From Vairimorpha necatrix (taxonomy: Eukaryota): 64,000 bases of DNA. Position 1 is the first letter of the stretch; the number at the start of each line of letters is the position of its first letter. This document shows positions 1 through 54,699 of the stretch, one piece after another. Below the pieces are notes generated by a model, which saw only the letters and a list, made by a program, of their open reading frames with translations, was not told the origin of the DNA and did not search any database. The stretch covers positions 1,178,001 to 1,242,000 of the forward strand of contig CP142727.1 of assembly GCA_036630325.1 (NCBI GenBank). Reading direction: 5' to 3'. A program made the translations under genes and the position numbers.

Positions 1-1960
1 CTCGACCCATCTATTAATTCTAGCATTCTTAAAGTCGGGCTTGTTTCTTATTTCGCCCAACGCTTTATGATCAGTTTCTATTCTAAATTTCCTACCTCTT
101 AATTCATATTCAAACTTTTTAACGCCCCAAAAAACTGCGTACATTTCTTTTTCTGATATACCATAATTAACTTCCGTAACGGTAAACTTCTTAGACGCCC
201 ACTGTACTGGCACCCATTCTCCTTGATTATTTTTCTGTAACAGTACTGCGCCCATGCCTACATTACTAGCGTCAGTCCTCAACAAAAATTCTTTATCATA
301 GTCTGCTATTTGCAGCTTTCCTAGGCCTTTCAATACTTCTTTTAAATTATTAAACTCGTTTTTCATATCATCCGTCCACTTCCAATTATCATTCTTCCCT
401 TTTAAACTATCTGTCAACCTAACTGTCAATCCAGCGTAATTCTTAATAAAATCTCTGAACCAACCCGTCATTCCTAAAAATCTTCTTACATCTGACACGC
501 ATGTTGGTATCGGAAACTCTAGGGCTTCATTTTTCTTTATCTCTGACGGTATTATATCTTCTCCATTTAAAGTGACTCCCAATAATTTAACTTCCCGTTG
601 ACAAAACTGAACTTTATTTGCATTCAGCTTCAAATTGTTTTCCTTCAGTCTATTTAATACCCTTTTCACTAATTGCTCGTGTTCTCCTATCGTTCGGCTG
701 TACAACACAATATCGTCCATATACACCTCTACTCCTTTGCCTTTCATATCTCTAAAAATCCTATCCATAATTCTCTGCAATATCTGCGGGCTATTCTTAT
801 ATCCCATAACCATAGAGTTCCATTCATAAACCTTGCCATTAAAATCAAACGCCGTCTTATGTTTATCCTCCTCCTCTATCTCAATACTATAGAAGGCCTC
901 TTTTAAGTCGAAAACCGTCATATATTTTGCACCTTGTGTAGCTCTTACAACATCTCTTATGTTAGACAATCTATACTCGTCCTTTTGTACAATATCGTTC
1001 AATGCCATCAAATTACTAACCAGTCTTATCTCACCATTTGGCTTTCTGATTGACCTTATAGGATTCTCCAACTTGAATTTGACTCTCTTATCACTTTCCT
1101 TTTTAATAAATCTTCTAGATGTAGCTCTGTATCTTTTATCAACGCCTGCGGAACCATTTGTCCCTTTTTAAATACCTTCATACCCGCTTCAGTATTAATT
1201 TTACATTTTTCCAGTTTACAATATTTTATCTCCTCTTTTCCTAACTTAAAAACCTCTCCAAAACTCTTAGCATACTTATCTAAATTTAATCTGATTCTCT
1301 TACTCTCCTCTTTAACGGCATATTCTTTTTGATTTTTCTCAAATTTGACTCTAAGTCCTCTTTTTGATCTTCTAAAATCTCGCTCCTGACTTGACTCTGA
1401 TTCACTACCTACTTCCATTTTGCAACTGTTATCCTTGTTATTCTTTTTATAATAATTATCTCTATTAATCTTCAGTCTGCATTCAAACACCCTATGCCCT
1501 TGTCTATCACAATAGAAGCATCACGGTACTCTCGATTTTTGTCTTGGTTGTTCTCTACTAATTTCTTCATTTATAGTCCTAGAAATAATTTTTCTCATTT
1601 CCTCATATATCTTTTCTTTTTCCTCTACTTCCTTAATCCTTAACAATAGCTTCTTCCTTATTCCTTCAATATTTTCTTCCTTTTTGATATTTCTCACAAT
1701 AAAATCTTTTAAATCCATCGAAGCCAACTTGAACAGCTCACTCTTCCATTTCACTCTATCTACATCTCTCAAATCCAATTCATACAATATACGCTCTAAC
1801 TCCTGTAACATCTTTCTGACCACTTGGCCACAGTCCTCTCTTGTGAACTCTTCTTTAGGTATCGCCCCCATATAAGTGCTTAACATAATTGGGGTTTAAT
1901 ATTATTACTGATTATAACAGGATATAATAATACACTACATACAGCAATAAAATGTACGCC
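1..1960 (-). mobile_element. Defective Ty3/gypsy LTR retrotransposon (gag - RT - RNase H), running off the left edge of the window
   Basis: Gag starts at 1886 after AAACCCCAATT-ATG. An in-frame TGA at 1521-1523 lies just before a CFYCDRQGHRVFEC zinc knuckle (CX2CX4HX4C). There is a 1-nt frameshift near 1066 (WRIL* versus WRNPIRSIRKPNGEIRLV). RT motifs DLKEAFYSI, MGYKNSP and VYMDDI (~712-723) and RNase H motifs TDASNVGMGAVL, EKEMYAV and ETDHKAL follow. No aspartic-protease D(T/S)G motif was seen, suggesting an internal deletion. Confidence 0.92.
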
Positions 1961-8376: not shown

Positions 8377-9462
8377 ATGAAGGAAATATTATTTACAGGG
8401 AAAATACAAATATATTCCTATGATGAACAAATCCCTACAAAAATGAAATGTGATGTAATAAAAGAAGGGGACTCGCTTATTATAAAATTAATAAACTTAA
8501 CTGACGTCTTCTCTTTTTATATTTGTACCATAAATAATGATGATTTTTATATTTTAAAAAGGGAACAAGACTTAATTGTCGATTATCATAAATTTATAGA
8601 AATAATTATCAAATTATTTCATATGGTACAAAATAACTCACTTTCGGCATATTTTCTAGATTTAAAATTTATGTTTGTAGAAAAAAATGAATTCAGGAAT
8701 ATTATAAAATTAGAACTAAAATTTAAAGAACCAACAGATTTAGACTATAAATCATACATAGGCGACTTTATAAATAGGTTAGAAAATGATAATATTAAAC
8801 TTATAAAAGAAAATAGTTTACTAAAAGATTATAATAATAATACTCTACATAGAAAAATAAGAAATTTAGAAGAAAATCAAAATGCACATATAAACAAAAT
8901 TAACATGTTAAACAAACAAACTGACGAATATAAATATAAATTAGAAAAAACTACATTAGAAATGAAAAATTTAAATAATCAAGTTTACGAATTAGAAAGA
9001 GAAAATACAAAATTAAAACTAGAAAATGATTCTAATATGAAAATCAGAGAAGATTTTTCAAATTTAAATTTAAAAAATAAAAATTTAGAAAAAGATTTAG
9101 AAGTAGCAAATGAGATAATAAAAAAAATTAGATCTGAAAATTTAGAATATAAAAATAAAATAGAAGAAATAGAAAATAATATAAAAAAGAGACATGATGA
9201 AGTAGAAAAATATGAGAATAATTTAGAAGAAATAAAAAAGAAAAATAAAATTACAGAAGAAAAATATAAAAAATTTCAAAAAGAAAATAAAGAAATAAAA
9301 AATAGAATTAAAGAGTTAGAAGTAGAAAATCAAGCATTAATAAGGAAATTAGAGAATGCTCAGAGTGTATTTAATCATTTTTCAAATAATAAAGAAATCA
9401 AAGAAAAATATAGTAGTGATAGTATTAGTGAATATTCTATACATCCTGAGGAGAAACCTTAA
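8377..9462 (+). CDS. SAS6: SAS-6-like protein (SAS-6 N-terminal head domain plus long coiled coil), 361 aa
   Basis: ACCCCGA-ATG start. DVFSFYICTINNDDFYILKREQDLIVDYHKF matches the PISA motif (DPFFLY...EEDFQSLKxQQGLLVDFxxF). VEKNEFRNIIKLELKF matches VETNPFKHLTHLSLKL, with the head-head Phe conserved. About 200 aa of heptad-rich coiled coil follow. Confidence 0.8.
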   Translation: MKEILFTGKIQIYSYDEQIPTKMKCDVIKEGDSLIIKLINLTDVFSFYICTINNDDFYILKREQDLIVDYHKFIEIIIKLFHMVQNNSLSAYFLDLKFMFVEKNEFRNIIKLELKFKEPTDLDYKSYIGDFINRLENDNIKLIKENSLLKDYNNNTLHRKIRNLEENQNAHINKINMLNKQTDEYKYKLEKTTLEMKNLNNQVYELERENTKLKLENDSNMKIREDFSNLNLKNKNLEKDLEVANEIIKKIRSENLEYKNKIEEIENNIKKRHDEVEKYENNLEEIKKKNKITEEKYKKFQKENKEIKNRIKELEVENQALIRKLENAQSVFNHFSNNKEIKEKYSSDSISEYSIHPEEKP

Positions 9463-16976: not shown

Positions 16977-18018
16977 GGCTAAAACAGCAATAGTGTAAAA
17001 AACATGGGGGTCCAAATTTTTAAAAAATTGCCCCTTTTTTAAAAAAGAAAGTGAATGCTGAGTAAGGAAGAAATTGAAAATTTTTACGAACGTCTACTAA
17101 ACAAGAATATAAGCAGAAATGTACAATGTTTTGTTGGAATACATCTAGAGTATCTAACGAAACGGCTTATTTGAGATGCAAGTTTCCCAAATGAAGGCTC
17201 GGATTTTTCAATTTGGAATAATACTTTATTTTCAAATAGTAAGATAGATCATCTTATTATTTGAAAATTTTTAATCTTAGGATATTGGGACTTTAAATAG
17301 CGCATATTTCTAAAATTTTGGACTGTAATATTCAAAATGTAAGTTATACACTTGAGAAATTATATAAATTAAAAATTTTAAGAAATATTTAAATAAGACA
17401 AAACAAATAGGAGGTGAAAATATTATAGTGGAGATCGATGAAAGCAAAATAGGTAAGAATAAATACCACAGCGGAAGATTGGTCAAAGGTTTTTGGTGTT
17501 TCGGGATGGTAGAAAAACAGTAGAAAAGAAGATAATCTTTGTCATAATAAATAAAAGAAACAAGGATACATTGCTGCCAATCTTATTTAAGCATGTAAAT
17601 TTAAAATCCATCATTCATTCCGATATGTGGAAGGCATATATGACTTTAAAAAGCCATTATGCGGACCATAGAACTGTTAATCACAGTCAAACATTTAGAA
17701 ATAATGAAACAGGTGTCCACACAAACACCATCGATTGGAATTAGAGATCTTTGAAAGCCTCTCTTCCCAATAGGTGTAAGAACATAGGAACTTTCAGAAA
17801 TCTATTTAACTTTGTATATGATTAAAAGAAATGAGAGTCAAGACACCTTTGAAACATTATTAAAATTGTGTTTTTGATATATTTTACCTATTTTAATGTT
17901 TATTTAATTACATTTTATTTTTTTTCTGAAATTTTCTCTTCCCTTCCTTTTTTAAAAAAGGGCAATTTTTTAAAAATTTTGATCCCCCATGGCTTTTACA
18001 CTAATGCTGTTTTTAGCC
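16977..18018 (+). mobile_element. Merlin (IS1595/ISXO2-like DDE) DNA transposon with pseudogenised transposase
   Basis: Imperfect ~70-bp TIRs (GGCTAAAACAGCAATAGTGTAAAA... / ...TTTTACACTAATGCTGTTTTTAGCC). Motifs IIVEIDESKIGKNKYHSGR, IHSDMWKAY, HRTVNHS and GVHTNTIDWN* occur with frameshifts and stops. The TSD is not clearly preserved. Confidence 0.9.
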
Positions 18019-19446: not shown

Positions 19447-19777
19447 GCATAAAATATAATTTATTTTGACATACAATTTTTTTTAAAAATGTGCAAACAT
19501 TAGTAATGTTGTTTAATATGTTATTTAAGATTTTTTTGAATATATCGCATCACAAAGAGAACGCCGTTATGATTTCTTTTTCATCAGAATATGTCTTCAT
19601 ATTTCTTCTGATTATCGCGACAGAAAAATTTATATTGTCAAACTGTTTATTATAATTTTCCATCCCCTCTTTTGGAAATGTTTTTAAATAGTTTTAGTAG
19701 CCAATCAAATACTTACATTTGTCGAAAGATGATTGGCTAGTTTTTGATGGGCTACGACATATATGTTTTATAAACTA

Positions 19778-20295
19778 CTAGCGTATGCTTTCCCGTTTTG
19801 AAAACGGGATAAATGTGTTTGTTTTATAATATGTCCCGTCTCGGTAAATTTTGTAAAAATTCCATTTTTGGCTGATTAAATTTGACAGAGTTTAGACATG
19901 ATTTTTAAAAATACTTTTTAGTGACATATAAGGAGTAATGTTGTTGTAAAACACTTAAAAATCATAATTAGATAATTTTGAATACTTCTAAGCTCAATTT
20001 TTGACACTTACATGTAAGATCTTCATTGGTTATATGTTTTTGCAATTTTTCTAGAAGGGTTAAATAAATTCTAAAAAACGATTCTGACGATATTTTGGAA
20101 CTGAGTTATACAAAAATAATAAATCTAATAAAAATGCATTAATATATATTATACGCACTTACAATTATCAAATTTAAGCACTGAGTTTAAATTTGATATT
20201 ACAATGACACAATAAGCTATAATAAGAAGTTTAATATTTTTAAAACCACAAAAAAGAGGGGTAAAAAATTAAATAAAATTCTTTTATATATATGA
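19778..20295 (-). mobile_element. Non-autonomous Helitron, unit 1 (518 bp)
   Basis: Minus strand starts TCATATATATAAAAGAATTTTATTTAATTTTTTACCCC, the same 5' end as the autonomous element. It ends with hairpin TCCCGTTTT-C-AAAACGGGA, 9 nt and CTAG, followed by T. Confidence 0.92.
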
Positions 20296-20298
20296 TGA

Positions 20299-20821
20299 CT
20301 AGCGTATGCTTTCCCGTTTTGAAAACGGGAATTAATATGTTTTGTTTTATAATATGTCCCGCCTCGGTAAATTTTGGTAAGTTTCCATTTTGGGATGATT
20401 GAATTTGGCAGGGTAAAGGCATGTTTATTAGAAATACTTTTTAGTAACATATAGAGAGTAAAGTTGAGTTAAAAACACTTATGAGTTATATTTAAAAAAT
20501 TTTGGGAAGTTCTAAGCTCAATTTTTGACACTTACATTCAGCTTTTTCTTTGGTTAATTGTTTTTTGGATTTTTCGTGGAAGGGTTAAATAAATTCTAAA
20601 AAACGATTCTGACGATATTTTGGAACTGAGTTTTCTATAAATAATAAATAGTTTAGAAAGGCATTAATATATAGTATGCGCACTTACAATTATCAAATTT
20701 AAGCATTGAGTTCAAATTTGATATTATAATACTTTAATAAGACCAAAAGTAATAGTTTAGAAATTTCAAAGTCACAAAAAAGAGGGGTAAAAAATTAAAT
20801 AAAATTCTTTTATATATATGA
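20299..20821 (-). mobile_element. Non-autonomous Helitron, unit 2 (523 bp)
   Basis: Same 5' TC terminus and hairpin-CTAG 3' terminus as unit 1; the interior is clearly diverged from unit 1. Confidence 0.92.
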
Positions 20822-20913
20822 TATACTAGTGTATACAGACCCGTTCTTAGAACGGGTTGTTTGTGTTTGCATGGGTACATGTTTTAATTTTATCACATTA
20901 TGTTTATTCTTTA

Positions 20914-21030
20914 AAAAAATGGCATAGTATCTGTACGCTCACGCCGCATTTTACCATCTTTTATCTCATCCTTATTGGAAAAAATGGCATAGTTCTTGTA
21001 CGCTCACGGCGCATTTCTCCATCTCTTGGC
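20914..21030. repeat. Tandem duplication (~65-bp period, 2 copies) in the Helitron 3' subterminal region
   Basis: AAAAATGGCATAGTATCTGTACGCTCACGCCGCATTTTACCATCT and AAAAATGGCATAGTTCTTGTACGCTCACGGCGCATTTCTCCATCT. Confidence 0.85.
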
Positions 21031-21032
21031 TC

Positions 21033-24000
21033 TTATGGGCCAATTAGTTCACGTAGAATTACATTTTTGACATTGCCCCCGTTTCCCCCCAACTTGACTC
21101 TCAAGTTTTCACTCTTCTTCACTCTTGACAAAGCTACGTATAATTGACCATGAGAAAATACATCCTCAGGCAAATACACTCCCACTTTGTCAAAAGACTG
21201 TCCCTGTGCTTTATGTATTGTCATAGCATATGACAATACCACAGGAAACTGTCTTCTTTTAAGTACAAACGGAAGAAGAGTGTCACTTGGCATCATGTCT
21301 ATCTTTGGTATAACAGCAAGGGTGCCCCTTCCCCTTCCTGTTATTATTTCACCTAAGATGTAATTATCTCTGAGACTTTTTATCTTCAATCTGGTCCCAT
21401 TTAATAATCCATTCTTAGGATCAATATTGCGTAACAACATCACTATTGCCCCTATCTTCAGTACTAACTTATGTGGAGGAAGTCCTGATGGCTGTTGCAT
21501 GTTCAAGAACTCAAGAGGAAATCTCAGTTGTTCTTCGATATCCTCTGATTCTATAGCATCAGAACTCACATATACCCTAGAAGATCCATTAAGTAGGTTT
21601 AACACTTTGGCATTCAATTCATTTGCATGTTCATTTTTGCTCGTTAAGATAATCTTATCAAACAAAGAATCATCACCTGCTTCAATTTTGATTGTTCCAA
21701 AAATGCTATCGACTATGTCTCCTTCTTCAAGATATTCTTTGGGTATCTCCACACATCCTTTACTATCTCTAGTACGCCCCTCACCTATATCTAACAACCA
21801 CTTATTAAACTCCAATTGATTGTAAGATCTCATATTCGTTTCAAGCTTCAGTACACAGACATGTACCCAAAGCCTTGAACTAATTAATGAGTTCTCGATG
21901 ATATCATTTGGAGTACCCTTCATTACAATGGTTGATGTCTGTCTAAAATCACCACCCAACAATAGAGTTTTCCCTCCAAAGATATCATCATTGTTACAGA
22001 GTCTTTTAAGCACCTCATCTATTGCGTTCAATGCATGTTTTGACATCATTGAAACTTCATCTATTAGCAATAAAGAGGCCTTTATTATTTTCTCTGCTTC
22101 GGGAGTATTTCTTTTTAATCTAGATACGCTGGTCTCTGTCAAAGGAACAGGAAGTTTCATACAACTATGCATTGTTCTTCCATCCTTTAATAAATCTGCA
22201 GCAATACCTGTGGTTGCCATCTGTATTGAAGATTTTTTATTCTTGTTTAAATACTCGGTCAGGACATTATATAGATATGTCTTCCCCGATCCTGCTGGTC
22301 CATCTAAAAAGAATAAATTGCCCTTTTTATCAATATTATCTGTTATTTTATCAAAAGCATCCCTCTGCTTTGCATTTAAAGAGGAGATCATCTGATCTAG
22401 ATCTTTTCCATTATCAGAGATAGTTTTTGCCTTCTCGATATAGTTAATCGGCTCATCTAAACCCAGAGCATTTAGACTCCATCCATGAGCATTAACTATA
22501 TCTTTTAATCTACTAATAACTTCGTCTCTACTATTCTGATCTAGATCTTCAGACATATCTCCAAGATACTTATCAAAGAGTTCTTTGGTATTTTTTGGCT
22601 TATTAAAAGCACAAATATATCCAAACAATGCTCTTATTATTGCTGGGGATTCGGTTGCTACTGCCTCATCCAAAGTCCTTTCCCATTCTTTGTCATCTTG
22701 AAGAAGTCCTCTTTCTTCAACCGCTTCTGCAAAAGAACTATAAACTATACCATTTACAGTTCTCAAATCATCATATGATCTAGCCCCCTTTACATTGATC
22801 AATAGGACTCTGAGGCTAAATCTTTCCTTCTCTGTAGGAGATACAGAATAAAGTCTAGTAATTATCTTGCTGTACTTATTCTTTCTCCTTATCCATTCTC
22901 CCCTTTTATATGTATAGTGATAGGGTATCTCACTATATGCAAATTGATTTGCCTCTTCATCAACTTCATTCAACTTGAAGTAGGCTAAAAGAGGGGTCTG
23001 TCTAAGATCAGATAATCTAACAGCTTCCTCTTCTTTCCCTTCTTCGAAAGTGATCAAGTGTTCTTGTGGAAGATGCACAGGAAGTCTATGGATCTTATGA
23101 GATCTCCCATGCATCTTGTATTCCATTAATCTCCAGGTAGCCTCTGGTGCTGAAACATATCTGGAATTCACAAAATGATCAATTTCATTGTTGTCGGTTA
23201 TTCTCATTTCTGCACAATCAAATCCCTTGTAAATATACTTGAAAATATACTTTACTGACTTGATAGAAGTACAAACTTCTACATTGATATGACAGTTGTA
23301 TTTTTCAAGCAAATAAGCATTATAGGGGACCACGTTAGCATTAGTAACAATGTTTCCCCTTACATTGTACTCGGTCCCTCTTATTCTTCGGTATTCAGGA
23401 TATCCGTCATTATTTATCTTTGTTTCAAAGTTATATTCTTTGGGATATTCTTTCGTGCAGACACCATTTTCCATGCATGGACTTGTCAAGTTACTTAGTC
23501 CACATGGTCCATGAATCATATGTTTTGTTACACAGTTGTGTAACATCTCATTGTCCATGGGTGATGGTATTTCTGCACTCACATACTTATCTATTCTTTC
23601 TTCATCCCGAATCTTATCCTTTAACATTATCAATATGTGAGCATGAGGAAGTCCACGTTTCTGAAACTCAATAGAATAGACATGAGCCTCAACTTCCCCA
23701 AATACTCTTCCTGACAAAATCTCCTCCATCATGCTTTTTAATTTTAAGTTGAAGACCTTTGCTACCAAATCAGGCCTATCAACTGCAGTTTGTCCCTCAA
23801 ATAGATTCTCCTTTATCTCCTTCCAATTTGGATTGCAAGTCATAGTAATGAAAAGATCGGGCTTTCCGAAATTTCTTACAATTGACATTGCATCATGGTA
23901 TCTCTCTCTCATATTTCTTGGAGATCCTTGGAAACTTGATGGTAAAATTACAGGCTTAGCATTACTTTCTATTCCATTATTTACATAATCTACTAAGCCT

Positions 24001-25337
24001 TTGTAAAGATCTACTCTCAACTTCTTCTGATTTAACTTTATGAAGTTTAAGTTATTTGCTTCAACTTGTAGATATGAATCTACAATCCATTGTTGAAATA
24101 ACTTTCCTCCATAAAGCAAAGGGTTGAATCTATCTTTTCTTATGGATATCTGTGCTACTTTGTATTGTAACAAAGATATCTTCTGTGATTCCCCATGATA
24201 AGACTCAATCCTTAAATTTGCATTCCACCCAGCTTCCCCATATGGATAGAACAAAGTATATGTCATGGGATCTAGATGGGGACTTAAAACATCCAAATGT
24301 AAATTATCAGAACTAAGACCCTTGCTATATACTTTAATGTCCCTCTCAAATGGTGGTTCTCCATTTGGATCAGTGAAAATCATTGCGATTTCACTTGTAG
24401 AGGGAGCGTTATATCTTCTCTGATCTCTTTCTAAATTCTTATTAAAGACCATAGAAATGTCTTTAACTTCTTTCCCCATTTCCTTTTGCTCCTTTACTAT
24501 TTCAGACATATTTTTATACGCATTGGAATATGGATTAGCAGATCTTATAAATCCATCTAATTTGCTCATGATATATATATCACAATTTCTATTAGATGGA
24601 TTCGTCATTCTTTGGGCATTTGCCATATCACTATCTACTACATATAATTGAGCATACTTCTTTGGTGTATTAGAGTCCATATTATTTACATTATAAGTGT
24701 TATGATACACTTGACCATGTATTTTAAATACATATGGTCCATTGGATACAGTTTCTATTTGAGCACCAAGAGAAGCAAAAGAAAGAGCAGCATTGTAGGA
24801 CCTAATATTGTCTCTGAAGTTTTTTGCATCTTTATTTTTTCCTATATATAAATTCTTAATGTCATCTGGGAAGTCTCTTGTTCTTTGTAATTTAACTTTC
24901 CCAAAATGACAGCAGCTTTTGTATAATCCATTGCTGCTTGCTTCTCCAGCAAAATGTAATGCACCACAAAAGCCACATTCTTCTTTCAGATCTCCACAAT
25001 AATGTTCGGCATGGTTTCTGCTAGTAATTCTGCATGCTACATCTAGTTTTTCTGTCAAGGTTTCTATTGTTGTGTTGTCTGCTAATCTAGCTGTTTTTTC
25101 TGTGTTGTTTGTTGGATTAAGAATTGTTTTGTTTTCGCCAGAGAAACTGAATATAAAATTCCTTTTTTTTGTTTCACCGACATTTGTTTTTTTATTTTTT
25201 GTGTTATGTACAGAGGCATTGGCCCCATAGAAAATAACATTGTCATTTTCAGTATTACTACATATCTCCTGAGAGATAGTGATAGTTGCTTTTGGTTGTT
25301 CACTAAAATCGCAATTTGTTTGATTTTTCGTAAGCAT
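21033..25337 (-). CDS. Helitron RepHel transposase (Zn-finger-like region, HUH/Y2 Rep nuclease, Pif1-family SF1 helicase), 1434 aa
   Basis: CGFCGALHF...CCHFG; LPSSFQGSPR; PDLFITMTCNPNW; HUH motif EFQKRGLPHAHIL; KYIFKYIYKG; Walker A GPAGSGKT; LLIDEVSM; GGDFRQ; GLLNGTR; RRQFPVVLSYAMTIHKAQGQS; HGQLYVALSRV. TACCCCCATT-ATG start. Confidence 0.97.
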   Translation of the reverse strand: MLTKNQTNCDFSEQPKATITISQEICSNTENDNVIFYGANASVHNTKNKKTNVGETKKRNFIFSFSGENKTILNPTNNTEKTARLADNTTIETLTEKLDVACRITSRNHAEHYCGDLKEECGFCGALHFAGEASSNGLYKSCCHFGKVKLQRTRDFPDDIKNLYIGKNKDAKNFRDNIRSYNAALSFASLGAQIETVSNGPYVFKIHGQVYHNTYNVNNMDSNTPKKYAQLYVVDSDMANAQRMTNPSNRNCDIYIMSKLDGFIRSANPYSNAYKNMSEIVKEQKEMGKEVKDISMVFNKNLERDQRRYNAPSTSEIAMIFTDPNGEPPFERDIKVYSKGLSSDNLHLDVLSPHLDPMTYTLFYPYGEAGWNANLRIESYHGESQKISLLQYKVAQISIRKDRFNPLLYGGKLFQQWIVDSYLQVEANNLNFIKLNQKKLRVDLYKGLVDYVNNGIESNAKPVILPSSFQGSPRNMRERYHDAMSIVRNFGKPDLFITMTCNPNWKEIKENLFEGQTAVDRPDLVAKVFNLKLKSMMEEILSGRVFGEVEAHVYSIEFQKRGLPHAHILIMLKDKIRDEERIDKYVSAEIPSPMDNEMLHNCVTKHMIHGPCGLSNLTSPCMENGVCTKEYPKEYNFETKINNDGYPEYRRIRGTEYNVRGNIVTNANVVPYNAYLLEKYNCHINVEVCTSIKSVKYIFKYIYKGFDCAEMRITDNNEIDHFVNSRYVSAPEATWRLMEYKMHGRSHKIHRLPVHLPQEHLITFEEGKEEEAVRLSDLRQTPLLAYFKLNEVDEEANQFAYSEIPYHYTYKRGEWIRRKNKYSKIITRLYSVSPTEKERFSLRVLLINVKGARSYDDLRTVNGIVYSSFAEAVEERGLLQDDKEWERTLDEAVATESPAIIRALFGYICAFNKPKNTKELFDKYLGDMSEDLDQNSRDEVISRLKDIVNAHGWSLNALGLDEPINYIEKAKTISDNGKDLDQMISSLNAKQRDAFDKITDNIDKKGNLFFLDGPAGSGKTYLYNVLTEYLNKNKKSSIQMATTGIAADLLKDGRTMHSCMKLPVPLTETSVSRLKRNTPEAEKIIKASLLLIDEVSMMSKHALNAIDEVLKRLCNNDDIFGGKTLLLGGDFRQTSTIVMKGTPNDIIENSLISSRLWVHVCVLKLETNMRSYNQLEFNKWLLDIGEGRTRDSKGCVEIPKEYLEEGDIVDSIFGTIKIEAGDDSLFDKIILTSKNEHANELNAKVLNLLNGSSRVYVSSDAIESEDIEEQLRFPLEFLNMQQPSGLPPHKLVLKIGAIVMLLRNIDPKNGLLNGTRLKIKSLRDNYILGEIITGRGRGTLAVIPKIDMMPSDTLLPFVLKRRQFPVVLSYAMTIHKAQGQSFDKVGVYLPEDVFSHGQLYVALSRVKKSENLRVKLGGNGGNVKNVILRELIGP

Positions 25338-27237
25338 AATGGGGGTAAAGGAAAAAAAAAGTATTTATAGTTTTTAAAATTAAAATTCCATTTTGGGAAA
25401 GAAGAAAACAAAAATGAGAAAATGATTTTTTATAAATAGCTTTGATATTAGTCTAAATATTAATTAATTGAGTTTGTTATTCAGTTGATAAATTTCTAAT
25501 GTTTGTAAATCAACTTTATTATGTTTATTTATTTTGATCGTATTGATTTTGATTTTCCATTTCGGAAGGAAGAATTAAAAAGGAGTAATGTGATTTTTAA
25601 AAATTAAGTATATTATCGAATTAACATTGCAGTGGTAAAGTTAATTCAGAAACAAATATAAATTCAATTGAGTTAATTTCACACATTAGCAACCAATTTT
25701 TTAATATTTGTGTCACATTGTTTTTGTTTTCTTTTTCTAAAAGAAATAAATTAAAAAGGAGAAAATCATATTTCTAAAAATTTCAAAAATGATTTATAAA
25801 TAAAATGTAAATATTGAAAGTGGTTGAAAATTGTCTATAAAATACAATTCAAGTATTCAAAATCATTTTTAAATCAAAATTAGCAATTTTATTTTTTTAC
25901 CATTTTTTATATTTTAGGGGTAAAAAATTAAATAAAATTCTTTTATATATATGATTTGTCTAATAAAAATATATATCACATTGGTAAAATTTGTTCAAAG
26001 TTTTTTTAATATAAATATATGCGAATTCAATTTTTCTTTCCACACTATAAATAAAGCAATTTAGGTAAAATTGTAATCTGTTGATTTGATATAAAAGATT
26101 TTGGTTTAGATTTCATGCCTTTCTGTAATTTGCTATAATTTATCATTGGTTTTTTCTCAAATTCGTTCGTTTTAGTATTTTTTGATATACATCCAAGTAT
26201 TAAACATAATTTATATATTTGTTGTACATAATGTATTATTAATTATCTATCTGTATTACACTTAAAAAATTTACTAAATTATTTTTGAATATAAATAATT
26301 TTGAAGAAAACCAATAACCTATACATATATACATATAAAAAACACAATTCGACTCAACTAAACACAATCCATGTGTAAGTAAATTTCATATATTTTTAAT
26401 TTTAATTAAACTACCATTAATATAAGAAAAATGACTTATTTTAGTTATTCGAATTAAAGATTACACAATAAATAAAAGAAAACGGCATTAGACAATTTTT
26501 GAAGCCCCCACTAATTTAAAAGCAAAAAAAATTGCATTGAAAAAATCTATTAAAATGAATTGGATTAGTTTTTTAAGATCAATAACAATAGTAATTACAT
26601 AAATATAGGTTCTAAAATTTTTTTTATACGCTATATAAAAGCTAAAAACTGCAATTTCTCACAAAAAACTGATACATAGTCATAAACTAAGCAAATTTTT
26701 TTTTCAATCTTATACACCAATAAGAGATAAAACCAAACAATTACATCTTTAGTATTGAAATTGAATATATGATTTTGAAAAAACTAAGCGTATAGTATTG
26801 AAAATATGTTTGTCTACCATTCAAACAAAAAAACGAGGTATCAGCAAGAATATGTTCCAAAATTTGGTTGTGTTTTAAACCGAATAGCTTGTATCACATA
26901 GGTAAAGAAAACGTATTTTTACAAAAATTATTTTTAATGTAACGACAAGTAAAAATAGCATCAAAACAATCAAAAATAGAATGATTTTAATTTAATGTCG
27001 ATACTTGGTATATCAATACAAAATTAGAGTCAAAATAACAGAAATATGAAATATATGTTGAAGCTTTACTAAGTTTTTATATTAATAGGTTAAAGATATT
27101 TTAAAAAAAACTAGAGCTCTGAGATGGTTTTTTAGCTTAAGCGCGTAACAAAAAATACTTTATTTTTTGTTATAAATAAAGTCTAATCATAAACTTTTCT
27201 ATATTAATTTTTTTTAATTCAATTTATTTTAAGCTTT

Positions 27238-28283
27238 GACTAAAATCAGCATTAGTGTGAAAAATTAGGGAGCCAAAAGTTTTAAAATCTTACCCTTTTT
27301 TTAAAAAAGAAAGGAATGCTGAGCAATGAAGAGATTGAAGATTTTACGAAAGTCTACTAAACAAGAAATATAAGCCGAAATGTACAATTTGCGGTTGGTA
27401 TATAGCTAAAGCATCAAACGAAACTGCGTATTTAGCTTAAGTATCCCAAATGCAAGCACTGATTTTTCAAATTAGAATAACACTTTAAGATCAAATAGTA
27501 AGATAGATCGTCTGCTTATGTTGAAAATTGTTAATTTGTGGATATTGGGACTTAAAAATAGCGCATATTTCAAGAATTTTGAATTATAATGTACAAAACG
27601 TAAGTTACACTGTGGAAAAATTACATAATTTATAAATTTATGACAACTATTTGAATAATCTAGGACATTAGGAGGCTAAGAAATCATTGTAGAGATAGAA
27701 GAAAGTAAAATGGGTAAGAATAAATATCATGGGGAAGATTAACTTTTGTGGTAACGGCATGGTGAAAAGAACTGAAGAAAAAAAAATAGTTTTCTTGATT
27801 GTAAAAAAAAAGCAGGAAATTATTGCTTGCGATCTTATTCAAGCACGTAAAGTTTAGATCCTTCTTTTATTCTGATATGTGGAAGACATATATAAATTTA
27901 AAGGATTATTTTAGGGACCATGAAATTGTAAAATATAGTCAAACATTTTGAAATAATGAAACGGGTGTCCATACAAACACCTTCGAAGGGGATTGGAGGT
28001 CATTGAAAGCCTCTATACCCATTGGACGTAAGACATATGACCTTGCAGATATATATTTGACTCTCTATATGATTAAGAGGAGTGAGAATCAGAATACCTT
28101 CGAAACATTGTTAAAATTATGTTTTTATTATTTTATCTGTTGAAATCTTATTTCTGCGGCGTTTTTTATACATATCCAGTTTTAGGTTTTTCTGAAGCTT
28201 TCTCTTCCTTTCCTTTTCTTAAAAAATAAATATTTTATTAATTTTGACCCCCTTATTTTTTTACACTAATGCTGATTTTATCC
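27238..28283 (+). mobile_element. Second Merlin transposon copy (same family as 16977-18018), pseudogenised
   Basis: TIRs GACTAAAATCAGCATTAGTGTGAAAA / TTTTACACTAATGCTGATTTTATCC. 8-bp TSD TAAGCTTT / AAAGCTTT (7/8). Motifs IIVEIEESKMGKNKYHG, YSDMWKTY and GVHTNTFEGDW. Confidence 0.92.
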
Positions 28284-28486
28284 AAAGCTTTATTAAAAAT
28301 GACGTATTGTTATGTTTAATTAATAATAATAATTCGTTTATTTATTTATCATTTATCAAATATATAAAACATTATAGTTAGACATATCTAAGTTAAGTGG
28401 TATTTATTTATAAAATATTGATTTGGATATTCAATCCACAACAATTATAAAATATGTATTTATAAGAATATATAAAATTATGATAC

Positions 28487-34733: not shown

Positions 34734-36941
34734 ATGATTACACCAAAATTTTTAATCTCATTTGGATTAATGGCGTCCAATCAGAATGTTTTTAATAATA
34801 TACAAAAAACGATACTTAGTAAAATACATAAAAGAGAATACGTTGTATTTGATTCATCTGCTTCTTACACTGTAATGGATATATGGATGTATGACTTTGA
34901 TAATACTATATCTTGCACGTTTACTGATGGATTTAGCGCTAGAAGAAAAAATGACGAGGTTGAAAATTTTAAAATATGTTATGAAAATAAATCTATTTGT
35001 GATATAACCGAAGAAATTGAAGCATATGTTAAAAAAATTTTACATTTTCCAGATAATAATCCCATCATACTAATATATCATAATTGTTATTGTGAGAATT
35101 ATTCCATCATGAAGAATGTTATAAATAATATTAAAAAAATAAATAGTGGAAGAAGAAAGAAAAAGAAAGGGAGTGAAATTTATTATGAAATCATTGCAGA
35201 ATCTGATTCTCACTTCAATACAATGTATAAGCATTTAAAAAAAACAAACACCAATGCTAGACATGATTCAGATCTTCCAAACTCCGCGGTTGATTATTTT
35301 AAATGCAATAATAATGACACTTATTATTTTAGAATTCGTATCATTGTATCGAAACTTTGCTATTTGTTTGAATTAAATATTAACGAACTCGATGTCAAAG
35401 AATTAAATTCCTTGGTTAAAATAAAAAAAGAAAATTATAAAAAAAATGACAAGGAAATACTTATCAATTTAATTAGCTTATTTAAAATACATGATCTTGA
35501 AAACATAAGCGAATCCCTTAAATTTGAGCATTGTACATTTAAAACAAATAAGATAGAAATAAAGTATTATAATTATTTTAAAGTAGAACTAAAAAATAAT
35601 GCTTTAATCTTTCAAGAAAATTCTAATGTACATTACAAATATTTAAAAAATAAGGAAAATCAGGGACATGAAAAAACATATATAGAAGAAAAAAACTTTC
35701 GTGATTTTAAAAATTTTTTAGATAAGGTTTATGAGATTAAAAACATAGACAATGGAAAAGGTGTAGAATTTTTTTACAGATTAATAAATAGACATAATAA
35801 AGTCGAGTTCCTAGTACTGAGAATTTTAAATAAACCAGGATCGGCTTTAAATTTGTTATTAGGATATCTTCTATTATTCGAAACCTTTATCCAAATGTAT
35901 GAATTTGATATCATTACAGGACAAGTTCGAGATGGACAAACTCAAATAGAAAATAGACAGGTCGTAATCACAAAATATATTAGTGGGAAAATATCGAAAA
36001 CAACATATGCAAAATCTTACTTAATGAAAATTTGTTTACTTCTTGAAGCAGAAAATTTTATCAACGAAGACGATCTAAGTCAAGATCTATTTTTCAAATC
36101 TCTAAAAAATATAAGTGTTCTAATGAATTCGAATTATGATGAAAATAATATTTTTATTGTGACGAAGATATTACAAGAGGTTCAAAATAAATATATCGAT
36201 GAAATCACAAGATATAAAACTGAAATTTTAGAAAATTTGTGTGATATCATCTCGAATTTAACATCTTTAAAAAGCACAGAATTCATAAATAGACAATTTG
36301 GCGATGGGATTATAACGAATATTAAGACTAATGAATTTGAAACAAGAGAAAATGTAAATCTTTTTATGAAAATCTTATTAAAAAATTCCAAACAAGATAA
36401 AAAATACGCAGAAGTGAGAAAAATAAATGAGAAGATTATGAAATATATCAAAGAAATCGCTGATAAAATAATATTATGCAATGAATCTAAACTAATAAGT
36501 TCAAAAGCTTTAGAAAAAAACAACATCAATTTATTAGTAGACGAAATTCGACAAAATCTCATTAAAGACTTAGTTAACGAAGGGATGAAAATGTTTGACA
36601 AAAAAATTCAAAGTTATGTTATTGAAGATGAGTTAATCAAGGACACGGTAAATAAGATAAAAAATGAATTTAAAAAAGGATTTACTCAGGAAATAAGAAA
36701 AAATGTAGTTGAAAATATAACAAATAATTTGGGGAGGTACTTGGTTAATCTGTTTTTTATACTTCTTGAGCCTAAGGCTAAAAATGAATTAAGTATCAAA
36801 TCTACGCAATGTAAACAAATGTTTGTAAATATACGGCCTATGTTAAGTAAAAATGTTTTAATGATATTAAATATGGAAATTGGTGGAAGGATTCATAATA
36901 TTTTAGTTGAAAAATTAGAAATATGTATAAATCAAAAATAA
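34734..36941 (+). CDS. Lineage-specific secreted protein, 735 aa; paralogue of 2802-4952 and 44405-46714
   Basis: ATCCCTA-ATG start and hydrophobic N-terminus. Shared blocks: RHNKVEFLVLRILNKPGSALNL, FDIITG and SYLMKICLLLEAENFINE. Confidence 0.9.
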   Translation: MITPKFLISFGLMASNQNVFNNIQKTILSKIHKREYVVFDSSASYTVMDIWMYDFDNTISCTFTDGFSARRKNDEVENFKICYENKSICDITEEIEAYVKKILHFPDNNPIILIYHNCYCENYSIMKNVINNIKKINSGRRKKKKGSEIYYEIIAESDSHFNTMYKHLKKTNTNARHDSDLPNSAVDYFKCNNNDTYYFRIRIIVSKLCYLFELNINELDVKELNSLVKIKKENYKKNDKEILINLISLFKIHDLENISESLKFEHCTFKTNKIEIKYYNYFKVELKNNALIFQENSNVHYKYLKNKENQGHEKTYIEEKNFRDFKNFLDKVYEIKNIDNGKGVEFFYRLINRHNKVEFLVLRILNKPGSALNLLLGYLLLFETFIQMYEFDIITGQVRDGQTQIENRQVVITKYISGKISKTTYAKSYLMKICLLLEAENFINEDDLSQDLFFKSLKNISVLMNSNYDENNIFIVTKILQEVQNKYIDEITRYKTEILENLCDIISNLTSLKSTEFINRQFGDGIITNIKTNEFETRENVNLFMKILLKNSKQDKKYAEVRKINEKIMKYIKEIADKIILCNESKLISSKALEKNNINLLVDEIRQNLIKDLVNEGMKMFDKKIQSYVIEDELIKDTVNKIKNEFKKGFTQEIRKNVVENITNNLGRYLVNLFFILLEPKAKNELSIKSTQCKQMFVNIRPMLSKNVLMILNMEIGGRIHNILVEKLEICINQK

Positions 36942-38311: not shown

Positions 38312-39887
38312 ATGTATTAATATATTCTTAGTTTCTTTTTGGAATTTTTAATTTTAGTCTAACAGCTTCTTTATATTTTAAACGGCAAATTGATGTATTT
38401 GACATAAAACTCAGTATTTTTTTTATAATTTATGTATAAATATGACTTAAATATTTAAAACTTTTATCTTCTTAATGAGCAATTTTTCAAAATTTTCGTT
38501 TTTTATATACATTAATAGGAGTATAAATTAAATGATTTTAGCCATATGAAACAAATAAAGAGTATTATAATTTTGATGATTTTGCTAGAGAATTTTGTAT
38601 GATATAAATAAAATTAAAAATTGAACCAATGGATTATTTTTTATACACATTTCCTTTGTTTCCCGATGCCTAATGAAATTATATATGACAATAATAGAAA
38701 TATACAAAAATAAAGACAAATGTTTATGTTCTATTTAATTTATCTATATGGTACACATTTATACATGTATGGTTGGAAGAAGGCGATAAAACAATTACAT
38801 ATGCATTTACAAGTTAAATAGTAAAAATAAAAATTAGTATTTAAAACGAATTAATCCGTGAAATTTTAGAAGCGGCCGAGAGAAATACAAAAATTTACCT
38901 TATAATTTTTTATAATGATGCGATTGTAATATATGTGACAGATGTGATCATAAGAATATTTCTTTTACGAAGTTTGTTCTCGAAAATTTTAAAAAATTAA
39001 ATAGTGGAAGAGGTCTGAAACTAAATGTAGTGAAATCAAATAAATAATTATTGTATAGATTGACGCTCTTTCGTTAAATTGTTCTAAAAACTAATAGAAA
39101 AAATTATAATCTTACATATGAAACATATATTCCTATTCTCTCAGTTACTCAGATTATCAACAACTATAATACATTTTGTTTTAGATTTATGTTGAAATAA
39201 ATAACGTCTGATATTTATTAAAATGAATCATACCGAATTTAATTTATTACATGCTATAAAACCGAAAATAATAATATAATAAGAAACTAAATTCTAAAAA
39301 TTGAAGAGATTATAAAAAATAAATGATCTAAATATCTTTATGAACTATTTGATTTGTCTCATTGCGAATTCATACAAGACAAAATTGTTCTAGATTATCT
39401 TAATGGCAGCTAACTAGAAATAAAAAATCATTTTTATATTTTTAGATAAGATTGAAAATGATTTTATTCTATAATTAATATTCTAATCAAATGAATAAAA
39501 ACCTCGTATATACTTTTTTTTAATATTTAAAGTATAGATTACGGCAAAGATGTTTTATCGCATTATAAAACGCAACAACAAAGTAAAGCTTTTTATAATA
39601 AAAATTTTGAATAAATCTGGTTCAATAATAATTGCCTGCTCGGCTATTTATTTATGATTATAAAAAAGTATGGATTTGATATCATACAGGAAAAATTAAA
39701 ACGTGGAAACTGATATAGAATATATTTATAAGGAAATCACAATTTATAACATATGGCTAAGCATATTTATTAAAAATGTTTACTTTTAGAAGTAGGAATT
39801 TTCATCTGCAAAAATAATGCAAGACAAGATCTATTTTTAAGAACTTAAAAAATATTTTAATTAAATAAAATTAATTTATAATTAAAA

Positions 39888-40399
39888 CTAGCGTATGCTT
39901 TCCCGTTTTGAAAACGGAATTAATATATTTTGTTTATGGCATGTACTTCCTCCTATATTTTTTGAGTTTCCATTTTTGGTTTGAATAAGAAAAAGAAAAA
40001 GTATGTTTTAAAAACACTTTTTATGAACATTTAAGGAGTACAATGAAGTTGAAAACACTTATGAATCTCAATGAGATATGTTTAAAACTATTAAATCTCA
40101 GTTTTTGAGACTTACAATTAATTTCTTCTTAGTTAATTGTTTTTTGGAATTTTTCTAGAAGGGTTAAATAAATTCAAAAAAACGATTCTGACGATATTTT
40201 GGAACTGAGTTTTACAAAACCAAGAATTAAAATGTAAATGCATTAATATATAATATATGCACTTAGAATAGTCAAAATCTTTCAATGAGTTTATATTTGA
40301 TATTACAATAACACAATAAGCTGTAATAAATAGTTTAGAAATTTCAAAGTCACAAAAAAGAGGGGTAAAAAATTAAATAAAATTCTTTTATATATATGA
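39888..40399 (-). mobile_element. Non-autonomous Helitron, unit 3 (512 bp)
   Basis: CTAG at 39888-39891 with an adjacent hairpin; conserved 5' terminus ends at 40399. Confidence 0.92.
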
Positions 40400-40919
40400 C
40401 TAGCGTATGCTTTCCCGTTTTGAAAACGGGATCTAAATGTTTGTTTTATAATATGCACCTCCTTTATCTTTTTGTGAATTTTCATTTTTTGATGAATGAA
40501 TTTGAAAAGGAAAAAACATGATTTTGATAAATACTTTTTAGTAACATATAAGGATTAAAGTTTAGCTAAAAACATTTAATAATTATAATAAGATAATTTT
40601 GGGAACTTCTAAGCTCATTTTTCGACACTTACATTCAATTTCTTCTTTTGTCAATTATTTTTGTGAATTTTTTCTAGAAGGGTTAAATAAATTCTAAAAA
40701 ACGATTCTGACGATATTTTGGAACTGAGTTTTACAAAAATAATAATATGAATTAAAATGCATTAATATATAATATACGCACTCACAATTATCAAATTAAA
40801 ACGTTAAATCTATATATGATATTTTATTAACGTAAAAGGCTTAAAATATATCGTTTAGAAATTTCAAAATCACAAAAAAGAGGGGTAAAAAATTAAATAA
40901 AATTCTTTTATATATATGA
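40400..40919 (-). mobile_element. Non-autonomous Helitron, unit 4 (520 bp), abutting unit 3 with no spacer
   Basis: Junction reads CTAG|TCATATAT on the minus strand. The pair is flanked by host A (39887) and T (40920) with no TSD. Confidence 0.92.
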
Positions 40920-44404: not shown

Positions 44405-46714
44405 ATGAATATAATTAAATTAGTTTTGTCATTTTTAATTGTACAAGGATCGGATATAGTGTATAATAATCTGAAAACAGCTTTTTTAAATAAAATAGCT
44501 AAAAGAGATTATTGTATTTTGAGTAATGAAAGTAAATATTTATTTGTAATATTTAATTTTCACTTGCGCAAAAATATAATAAATGCAAAATTTAAGATAA
44601 AGACTTTTCCTTGGTATCAAGAGGAGTTTGAATGTTTGAACGTTGATATGGAAAACAAATCCATTGAAACAATCTTAAACGAATTCGAAGAAAAATTATA
44701 TATTATATACAAAAATAATGCAGCAGATTCTATAATATTAATTTATGATCAGAGTTGTTGTAGATTAAAACCAATTTATAAAGAAATTATCAAACATATG
44801 AAAATAAATAATGACGAACGAAAAGAAATGCATATACGTCATGATATCATTTATAAATATATAATTGATTCAAATGCTCTGTGGTATAGAATGACTAAAA
44901 TCTTAGAAATCGATTTGAGAGTATCTGATGGCGATCTAATCGAATATAAAATTCCGCTAATGATTGAAGAAACTTTAGAGGGAAATTATATAGTTATTAC
45001 TATTCAACTAAATAATATATATTATTGCTTTGAAATAGATGTTAAAGAACTTGACGAAAATGAAATTTTATTACTAATAGAATTTGATTTTCCACATGAA
45101 AATGAACGTCATAAAATGATTAGTAGGTTGTTTTGTGATTTGTATGCTTTTGTTAAAACTTGTGATCTTGGTTACTTTTATCAATCAGGCTTTTCAGTTT
45201 GTAAACCTAACGAGATTAAATTATCCGGAAATATCATACAAATTGAGATAAAATGTGATAAAATATGTTTTACTATAAACTTTTGTAATTTTAACTATAT
45301 TTTAAAAAAGAATGTAGATATGTGTGAAAATGAATTTAACATTTATCAAAAAACTTATCTAGAATTTCAAGAAGTTTTTAGAAAAATTTATGCAATAGAA
45401 CAAATAGACGAGGCAAAAAAAATTATTGAATTATTTTTTAGGTTGATTAGGAACAAAAACCAAGTAATATATTTAGTAAATAGAATTTTAGATAAAACAG
45501 GCACTGCTCTGAATATAATTTTTAAACATCTTATAGACTGTCAGGATATATTCAAAAAAAACGAACTTGGATTTTCAATATTAAAAGAACAGATCAATGA
45601 AAATGAAAGGAAATTGATCATTGAAGTACTACAGGATATATTCGGCGACTATGGATCATCAAGTACTTATCTAATTAAAATCTGTTTATTCTTAGAAGCC
45701 GAAGAGCTTTTAAATAAAAACGAGGTAGGCGATGCACCAATATTTGGAATTTTGAAAAGAATTACAGAATTAGTTATTTCACAGAAAAATTCAACGAACA
45801 TCACATCGAGCGAAGAAAATTCTGATTTGTGTAAAGCATATCAATATTTATTAAAAAATTGTCTTGCAGATATGGAAACAAATAAAAGAAATATTTGGAG
45901 GATTGTATATAAATTTGCGGCATTGTTTACAGGTTTAGAAAAGACTAAATGCAAGGATGATTATTATTATTATTATTATATCGTAAAAAGTAATGAGATT
46001 GCAAAATTGTGCCTCAGAGAGAAAGAAGTTACTAAAACTTACGATTTGATAAGTAAAAAAATATTAAAAAAACATTCAGAAGATATCAAAAAAGAAAATA
46101 TAAAGTATTTATATCGTATCAAAAATATTATCGAAAGTATAAACAAATCAAAAATGAGCGAAGAAGAAATAAAGATTAAAAGATATGAAATGACAACACT
46201 CTTAAATAGAATAAATATAAAAATATATAGCTCGAATTTAATACCCCTAAAAAATGAAGCTTTAAATGCAAATATTGAAAATTTGTATGATGACAAGACA
46301 AGAACTAAATTTGAAAATGATTTAAAAGAAAGGGGAAGAGAAGAAATTAAAAATATTATTATAAGTGATAAAGAAACTAAAGATTTGATTGAAATTATAA
46401 AACAATATGACAAAAATATTTTAAACGAATACAATAATACCTTTTTGACTAACTTTTTTGCTGAATTGAGTGTATGTATTGAAAAAAATGTGAAAAAATG
46501 TTCTGAAAGAGATTTGCCGAAAGTTTTTGTTTCCTTTTTTAAAGATTATTTAAATAATGATTTAAACAAACAAGAAGCTTGCGAAAATATTCTTAAAAAG
46601 ATAATAAACATATTAAGTGAAAATGGCATATTAAAAAGTTTAAAGCAATCAGAAATGACACTACATGATGATTTAGTAAAATCGTTAGAAGAAAAAGATC
46701 TTAAAGAAAAATAA
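44405..46714 (+). CDS. Lineage-specific secreted protein, 769 aa; paralogue of 2802-4952 and 34734-36941
   Basis: GCCCCT-ATG start and signal-like MNIIKLVLSFLIVQGS. Shared blocks: KIAKRDY, NKSIETI, RILDKTGTALN, TYLIKICLFLEAEELLN and LHDDLVK. Confidence 0.9.
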   Translation: MNIIKLVLSFLIVQGSDIVYNNLKTAFLNKIAKRDYCILSNESKYLFVIFNFHLRKNIINAKFKIKTFPWYQEEFECLNVDMENKSIETILNEFEEKLYIIYKNNAADSIILIYDQSCCRLKPIYKEIIKHMKINNDERKEMHIRHDIIYKYIIDSNALWYRMTKILEIDLRVSDGDLIEYKIPLMIEETLEGNYIVITIQLNNIYYCFEIDVKELDENEILLLIEFDFPHENERHKMISRLFCDLYAFVKTCDLGYFYQSGFSVCKPNEIKLSGNIIQIEIKCDKICFTINFCNFNYILKKNVDMCENEFNIYQKTYLEFQEVFRKIYAIEQIDEAKKIIELFFRLIRNKNQVIYLVNRILDKTGTALNIIFKHLIDCQDIFKKNELGFSILKEQINENERKLIIEVLQDIFGDYGSSSTYLIKICLFLEAEELLNKNEVGDAPIFGILKRITELVISQKNSTNITSSEENSDLCKAYQYLLKNCLADMETNKRNIWRIVYKFAALFTGLEKTKCKDDYYYYYYIVKSNEIAKLCLREKEVTKTYDLISKKILKKHSEDIKKENIKYLYRIKNIIESINKSKMSEEEIKIKRYEMTTLLNRINIKIYSSNLIPLKNEALNANIENLYDDKTRTKFENDLKERGREEIKNIIISDKETKDLIEIIKQYDKNILNEYNNTFLTNFFAELSVCIEKNVKKCSERDLPKVFVSFFKDYLNNDLNKQEACENILKKIINILSENGILKSLKQSEMTLHDDLVKSLEEKDLKEK

Positions 46715-54551: not shown

Positions 54552-54699
54552 GGGTAATTATTTAAGAAATATTTATAAAAGTAACTTATCAATATATTAT
54601 AATATATCACGATATTTTTGACACATACCGTACTCCTTCATTTTATTCGTTTTTTTATCGCATGGAATTTATAAAAATTTGCGTTCAATTTAATTTAAT

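Follow-up and report, generated by a model that had tools for sequence, protein, structure and literature searches.

A 64-kb window of the Vairimorpha necatrix genome (64,000 nucleotides of contig CP142727.1, to which all coordinates refer) contains four repeats of about 520 bp, here called A to D, that by their sequence are canonical non-autonomous Helitrons. Between its two termini each of them carries, in an otherwise diverged interior, a 54-bp block that is as constant as the termini, and the block was not found in the autonomous Helitron that adjoins the A/B pair. We consider it probable that the block is a constrained cis-element of some kind. That it is a sequence-specific docking site for a protein, either the Helitron protein RepHel or a host factor, is a possibility that we put forward tentatively. 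In the working model of Helitrons the cis-requirements are only the two termini and the 3' hairpin, and a block as constant as the termini suggests either that this model is incomplete for natural elements or that the parasitic elements carry an extra recruiting device. The analysis covered genomic sequence only, from four element copies in this one window.

A 54-bp block is as conserved as the Helitron termini

The block is located at 20054..20107 in A, 20579..20632 in B, 40158..40211 in C and 40677..40730 in D, in all cases on the minus strand of the window, which is the sense strand of both elements and block. As reported in the first-pass annotation of this DNA, the copies in A, B and D are exact and the copy in C has one mismatch; the run of six T on the minus strand was also confirmed. 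The mismatch in C abolishes a TAG stop codon in one frame. The four blocks lie 188-191 nt from the 5' end of their elements, an equivalent place in each. No further match to the 54-mer was found in the 64-kb window at up to three mismatches, and shuffled controls gave a match in 0/100 cases.

The earlier failure to find the block in the autonomous element (20826-25954) was confirmed, the sole nhmmer --max match with a profile of the core in that region having E = 97. The adjacent autonomous copy, whose 3' end agrees only in part with that of the small elements, may not be the real helper, which may be located elsewhere in the genome, and since the identity of the helper is doubtful this absence holds for one copy only. 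When a source of the block was sought elsewhere in the window, the best non-Helitron match of the core profile was at 49419-49467 (nhmmer E = 0.41). Over 49418-49558 on the minus strand there is a weak, colinear resemblance to the interior of the elements, block included (full-profile E = 0.18). The window offers no other candidate for a source, although the resemblance is probably due to chance.

Searches outside the window were equally negative. The 54-mer had 0 matches in bacterial and archaeal contigs, and for RepHel 107 pattern matches were obtained in the same contigs, of which 0 were confirmed. A protein search with an alignment of the three frame-3 open reading frames (ORFs) derived from the block gave 42 word candidates and 0 at E <= 10, and the 79-aa ORF of copy C had 0 matches among 1.84 billion protein representatives. 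The literature searched contained no account of the block and named no internal cis-element for Helitrons of microsporidia.

The four elements were aligned with MAFFT (alignment A1, where the block occupies columns 199-252) and the conservation of columns was counted per region. Invariant columns amounted to 49/49 in the 5' terminus, 53/54 in the block and 31/32 in the 3' terminus, as compared to 53.2% of the 389 columns of the other interior, where pairwise identity was 62-83% per segment. The claim that the block is as conserved as the termini while the interior diverges was therefore correct for these four copies. Among 20,000 permutations of the interior columns, none (0/20,000) gave a 54-column window with 53 invariant columns (the maximum was 47), and the binomial probability of one or no variable column in 54 was 8e-14.

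Across the 135 columns of the three conserved blocks, departures from the majority numbered 0 in A, 0 in B, 2 in C and 0 in D (upper 95% bound for the decay of copies 2.2%), and private changes in the other interior affected 26-43 of 376 columns per copy (7-11%). Given that the conserved blocks are nearly undecayed, the insertions are young, and the interior divergence of 17-38% predates insertion and comes from distinct source lineages. The transition/transversion ratio of 0.77 argues against a process resembling repeat-induced point mutation. Pairwise identities were star-like, with roughly equidistant copies and no pairing of A with C or of B with D, and the outer flanks of the A/B and C/D dimers were unrelated, which argues against the duplication of one dimer. 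In these four copies the pattern indicates that the block was held constant across several source lineages by purifying selection and is needed for propagation.

It is quite unlikely, in our estimation, that the block has no function and that its uniformity results from recent shared ancestry, through recombination, template switching or gene conversion, as seen in four copies. The small sample speaks for this explanation, as does a sign of mosaic ancestry in the 3' interior, where A and B are 83% identical and the other pairs 62-75%; tandem neighbours would also be the obvious partners for conversion. However, neighbours are otherwise no more alike than non-neighbours. The same block recurs at both loci, 20 kb from each other, with an identical abrupt left edge in 4/4 copies, which fits constraint better than conversion tracts. 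Only the two functional termini are equally uniform, and to homogenise lineages 17-38% apart over one 54-nt tract would require at least three coincident events.

A second, smaller conserved patch was observed at columns 295-315 of A1 (for example 19985-20005), with the sequence TGTAAGTGTCAAAAATTGAG. This patch contains a splice-donor-like GTAAGT, preceded by an ATG in 3/4 copies, and is located about 45 nt past the CCC of the block.

Absence of structure and coding capacity

The first-pass annotation had drawn the block as an imperfect stem-loop. Such a structure can indeed be drawn, but its stability was no better than that of shuffled sequences: folded as DNA, the plus strand gave -2.6 kcal/mol (z -0.33; 64/200 shuffles folded equally well) and the minus strand -0.4 kcal/mol (z +1.07). 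As RNA the two strands had z scores of +0.72 and +0.21, and with an 86-nt context and RNA parameters z ranged from -0.08 to +0.72. A hairpin was thus rejected over strands, contexts and DNA or RNA parameters (z -0.33 to +1.07). The true 3' hairpins of the elements fold with z scores of -5.84 and -4.42.

A check for covariation, which had been proposed as a test of the stem-loop, turned out negative, as RNAalifold on the four copies found no compensatory pair in the block and a covariation term of just -0.94 kcal/mol. The program did predict a long-range pairing of 7 bp between CTCAGTT in the block and a conserved AAyTGAG about 100 nt downstream, within the TGTAAGTGTCAAAAATTGAG patch. Rfam 15 gave 0 matches at the gathering score for the whole window, the best E below that score being 0.52 in 19700-20900, and a tRNA search found none. 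With respect to coding, no frame that has a start codon runs open through the block in every copy, and stops occur in all three frames of the plus strand.

These results bear on the proposal, highly improbable in our view, that the block acts as a non-coding RNA, structured or small, or as a single-strand origin from which the complementary strand of the excised circle would be synthesised. Rolling-circle replicons do require priming of the complementary strand, double-stranded circles are on record in the available text on Helraiser (PMC5876387), and the 7-bp pairing might be taken as a trace of a structured RNA. But an origin of this kind needs structure, and the block has no significant fold on either strand as DNA or RNA; for that reason the single-strand origin put forward earlier has to be given up. 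The autonomous element would, moreover, need such an origin too, and it is without the block. The weak covariation argues against a structured RNA and the Rfam result against a small RNA of a known family.

Relation of the block to the Helitron termini

The last 19 nt of the block (AGAATTTATTTAACCCTTC) resemble, in the same orientation, the 5' subterminal sequence AGAATTTTATTTAA...CCCCTC, and the block contains a shortened form of the 5' subterminal motif, AGAATTT(T)ATTTAA ... CCC(C)T. With at most one edit allowed, all of the cores (4/4) and all of the Helitron 5' termini (5/5) contain the 13-mer AGAATTTATTTAA, which was also found at four unrelated sites on both strands of the window. The partial echo of the 5' terminus described in the first-pass annotation was accordingly recovered as a resemblance in the same orientation, but one of marginal significance: among 5,000 random 54-nt windows of the genome 2.5-3.0% aligned to the 5' terminus equally well (P = 0.025-0.03), and other interior windows of the small elements matched it as well or better.

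A related proposal was that the block is a relic or alternative internal terminus, that is, an old 3' end or the 3'-5' junction of an old dimer that is still recognised by RepHel. We consider this very unlikely. The arrangement of a weak stem, 14 nt and CTAG in 3/4 copies recalls the geometry of a Helitron 3' end, the block includes an A|TC followed by the motif that resembles the 5' subterminal sequence, and composite Lep1 Helitrons, in which an old 3' terminus is internal and followed by acquired sequence, are known from the available part of the Lep1 report (PMC4038834). However, the stem is the one that folds no better than shuffles, and the CTAG, which had been noted at about 12 nt from it, is 14 nt away, lies outside the invariant stretch and is replaced by CCAC in B. 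The block did not resemble the real 3' terminus (P = 0.55), and its likeness to the real 3'-5' junction (P = 0.03) was owed to the 5' part alone. An ancient dimer was rejected by comparing the 5' and 3' halves of the elements, which were unrelated in all four copies (P = 0.21, 0.57, 0.35 and 0.33). No truncated element that starts or ends at the block was found in the window, and a relic would not be expected to remain invariant.

The wider claim of the first-pass annotation, that the block is a selected cis-element, can thus be retained as far as selection-like constraint is concerned, whereas the hairpin, the single-strand origin and the relic terminus suggested along with it were not supported.

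The host CCC motif and a possible promoter

A CCC box is present 3-21 nt upstream of the ATG in 11/11 host ORFs examined (12/13 including RepHel), and a CCC motif associated with starts is also described for N. ceranae in the available text of a genome report (PMC2685015). A weight matrix was built from the 11 host CCC sites and used to rank 127,958 positions, including 518 CCC sites. The Helitron 5' termini took ranks 11-17 and the RepHel promoter rank 12. The TTTATTTAA-CCC-T of the block was ranked 93-766, which is average for a CCC site.

It is conceivable, though unlikely, that the block is an internal promoter or transcription-start module on the sense strand, ending in A-CCC-T after an A/T-rich stretch. 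Sense transcription would then present both the transferred strand and the 3' hairpin to the HUH nuclease in single-stranded form, and the block would take the place of the RepHel-gene promoter, which has the same orientation in the autonomous element. Apart from the regularity of the host CCC boxes, this explanation would account for the absence of the block from the autonomous element, which has its own CCC box and TATAAAT. It also agrees with the "well conserved candidate polII promoter" of a ~700-bp repeat in N. ceranae (PMC2685015) and, in the available parts of the Helitron literature, with promoter capture by HelibatN3, which carries the NUBPL promoter (PMC4778049), and with the action of HUH nucleases on single-stranded DNA (PMC5876387). 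Against it stand the ordinary rank of the CCC of the block among the 518 sites and the lack of a conserved ATG or ORF after it in the four copies; in copy A the nearest ATG is 33 nt away and opens a frame of 10 codons. No TATA-like box was present at about -27 of this CCC, and the only 8-mers common to the block and the host upstream regions were A/T-rich words and one AAAATATCGT run upstream of 53943-54551. That transcription promotes mobilisation is, besides, itself conjectural. We regard both the 5'-terminus echo and the CCC as weak leads.

A T-run followed by ACCCC was observed on the minus strand in the five Helitron 5' termini (20250-20298, 20773-20821, 25915-25954, 40351-40399 and 40871-40919), and it scores like an authentic CCC box of the host. 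In the autonomous copy an ATG follows 14 nt past this motif, in a frame that closes after 4 codons.

A putative protein-docking site

The reading that we prefer is that the block is a sequence-specific cis-module of one family of non-autonomous Helitrons and not a structural hairpin. It would recruit RepHel in trans, or a host factor on which RepHel depends, to the parasitic elements, with docking on the transferred strand (the minus strand of the window) or on the duplex, and selection for propagation would keep it unchanged while the interior diverges. Two short repeats and the shortened 5' subterminal motif fit a docking site: ATCGT-N4-ATCGT is a direct repeat at positions 17 and 26 of the block and holds its only two CpGs, and AGAAT occurs twice, at positions 23 and 36.

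Possible analogues are the subterminal transposase-binding sites of DNA transposons and the iterons and conserved regions of rolling-circle satellites. The iterons of geminiviruses, the conserved region of betasatellites and the subterminal repeats of Ac/Ds or En/Spm are short sites that recruit the mobilising protein; they are sometimes direct repeats, and the conserved region of the satellites is not present in the helper. The putative docking block differs from these accessory sites for Rep or transposase in its location, at distances of about 190 and about 275 nt from the two nick sites and thus adjoining neither.

A bolder version of this idea is that mobilisation in this lineage depends on the block as a third, internal cis-element besides the termini, an iteron-like module for docking RepHel that was evolved by the non-autonomous elements and is not present in the helper, by which they would capture the transposase and out-compete the helper; it may also steer insertions to the 5' ends of resident copies and so build arrays. 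In this extended form we consider the proposal unlikely.

Several points weigh against a docking site. There are just four copies, all in one 64-kb window, the direct repeats were noticed post hoc, the likeness to the 5' terminus is marginal, and neither terminus has anything that corresponds to the initial 26 nt of the block. According to the available text on Helraiser, terminal sequences around a marker suffice and no internal element is needed (PMC4778049). Finally, the adjacent autonomous element is without the block, which argues against a universal requirement of RepHel for it.

Comparison with known systems

A conserved core in non-autonomous rolling-circle elements is known; here it is present in a canonical microsporidian Helitron and not in the adjacent helper. 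The closest description concerns DINE-1/mini-me elements, which have a core of 33 bp, extended to ~90 bp, that its authors held to be probably functional for transposition (PMC2374699). As far as the available text of that paper goes, the likeness consists of a short conserved core in diverged non-autonomous rolling-circle elements without an ORF. In the same text the DINE-1/mini-me core is located in the 5' block A and is also present in the autonomous consensus, and the elements have subterminal inverted repeats, a TT target and belong to the Helentron type. By comparison of descriptions, the present elements are instead canonical (TC...CTAG, A|T target), with the block in the middle of the element and absent from the autonomous neighbour.

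In the same host clade, N. ceranae has a dispersed repeat of ~700 bp that is often tandem, occurs in at least two subtypes, has no ORF and carries a conserved promoter-like motif (Cornman et al. 2009, PMC2685015). It resembles the present elements in being tandem, divided into subtypes and non-coding, with a conserved internal motif, and differs in its length (~700 against ~520 bp) and in not having been recognised as a Helitron. From this comparison, made by description only, the N. ceranae repeat may be the same kind of element, and the block may then explain the "conserved promoter" repeat reported in 2009.

Helraiser and Helibat share with the present elements, in the parts of the reports available, the 5'-TC, the CTAG-3', a GC-rich hairpin 10 nt before the end, the A|T target, head-to-tail abutting insertions and non-autonomous families mobilised through shared termini; insertions in which the 5' end of one copy abuts the 3' end of another, and promoter capture, are both documented there (PMC4778049, PMC5876387). 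In contrast to the present case, the model given in these parts names no internal cis-element, and the promoter captured by HelibatN3 is described there without evidence of constraint. Lep1 elements are small non-autonomous Helitrons with copies in Nosema bombycis (PMC4038834). Their likeness, from the available text, lies in a Nosema genome and in the presence of conserved and variable parts, but the conserved 5' unit of Lep1 has a CTRY end of its own and is followed by a variable part gained at the 3' end, whereas the present elements are homologous over their full length and have just three invariant blocks.

The role of the block would bear on how non-autonomous Helitrons outnumber their helpers, on the origin of head-to-tail arrays and on the repeat-driven expansion of genomes in Nosema/Vairimorpha. 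If it is a chance product of four related copies, what remains is the annotation of an ordinary Helitron family.

The four elements, their arrays and the autonomous Helitron

All four non-autonomous elements are on the minus strand: A at 19778..20298 (521 bp), B at 20299..20821 (523 bp), C at 39888..40399 (512 bp) and D at 40400..40919 (520 bp). Read on this strand, each begins with TCATATATATAAAAG (TCAT...) and finishes with ...ACGCTAG, the end being composed of the palindrome CCCGTTTTCAAAACGGG, 10 nt and CTAG. The 5' terminal block of A (20250..20298, 49 nt) is invariant in 4/4 copies and contains the host-type T-run and ACCCC motif, and its 3' terminal block (19778..19809) is formed by the hairpin. 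The palindrome is GC-rich and folds with -9.3 kcal/mol (z -5.84), equalled by 1/200 shuffles. The outer flanks fit insertion into A|T, apparently without a target-site duplication: a T follows the 3' end of A and of C, and an A precedes the 5' end of D, of B (TATA|TC) and of the autonomous element. The longest ORF of the small elements is at most 83 aa from stop to stop.

The elements form two head-to-tail dimers, A/B and C/D, at loci 20 kb apart, and A/B adjoins the autonomous Helitron of 5.1 kb. At the joints (20295-20302 and 40396-40403) the CTAG of B is directly against the TC of A and that of D against the TC of C, which gives CTAG|TC with zero spacer between partners that are just 62-83% identical per interior segment. 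At 20820-20829 a spacer of 4 nt, TATA, separates the end of the autonomous element from the 5' TC of B. Insertion into A|T, where the A is the flanking nucleotide and the T the first one of a resident Helitron, would yield such a CTAG|TC junction, which points to arrays built by insertions directed to the 5' ends of resident copies and not as rolling-circle concatemers.

The autonomous Helitron is located at 20826..25954 on the minus strand (5,129 bp, with its 3' CTAG 4 nt from B). It contains an intact RepHel ORF (21033..25337, minus strand, 1434 aa) with Helitron_like_N and PIF1 helicase domains, the best database relative of which has 55% identity; the nearest protein relatives are those of animal Helitrons. 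The termini, the 3' hairpin and the RepHel domains all agree with the earlier description of non-autonomous Helitrons next to an autonomous one. The first 40 nt of the autonomous element are identical to those of the small elements. At the 3' end 23/31 nt are identical by count from the alignment (nhmmer E = 0.11), and 20826-20870 contains the stem CCCGTT...AACGGG found in 19778-19809, with a different loop and spacer.

The RepHel ATG is preceded (25338-25420, minus strand) by a TATAAAT at 32 nt and a CCC box, TTTACCCCC, at 8 nt, and from these motifs the transposon seems to have adapted to the expression signals of microsporidia. Directly past the RepHel stop codon, at 20907-21032, a stretch of 61 nt is duplicated in tandem (80% identity; repeat family D20).

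Other features of the window

Host genes in this DNA are long ORFs without introns, and the G+C content is 22-36% (2-kb windows). For the COPI-alpha protein the nearest relatives were those of Vairimorpha bombi (59%), Nosema granulosis (48%) and Encephalitozoon (about 40%), in agreement with a microsporidian host from the Nosema/Vairimorpha clade. A 361-aa ORF at 8377-9462 (plus strand) matches the N-terminal domain of SAS-6 (E = 1.5e-15), which was unexpected given that microsporidia, to our knowledge, are without centrioles.

Other mobile elements were also observed. Two copies of a ~1-kb element (16981-18013 and 27219-28302, ~80% identical) have terminal inverted repeats of 75-98 nt and decayed pieces of an ORF with words such as VEIDESKIGKNKYH, which we take to be IS1595/Merlin-like. 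An open-ended ORF at 1-1008 (minus strand) with reverse transcriptase and RNase H domains indicates an LTR (long terminal repeat)-type retroelement, and this region has a higher G+C content (0.35) and a strong negative GC skew.

Two paralogous ORFs of 735 and 769 aa (34734-36941 and 44405-46714) belong to no Pfam family. A decayed third paralogue is found at 38931-39852, with the second Helitron dimer just after it, and all three share the repeat families D7 and D13. At 54486-55138 there are 4-5 tandem units of ~76 nt, each with the palindromic word TTTGTTTGTTTTAACAAACAAA (families D5, D6 and D8), and these units are located in the spacer between a guanylate kinase gene and a HECT-domain gene.

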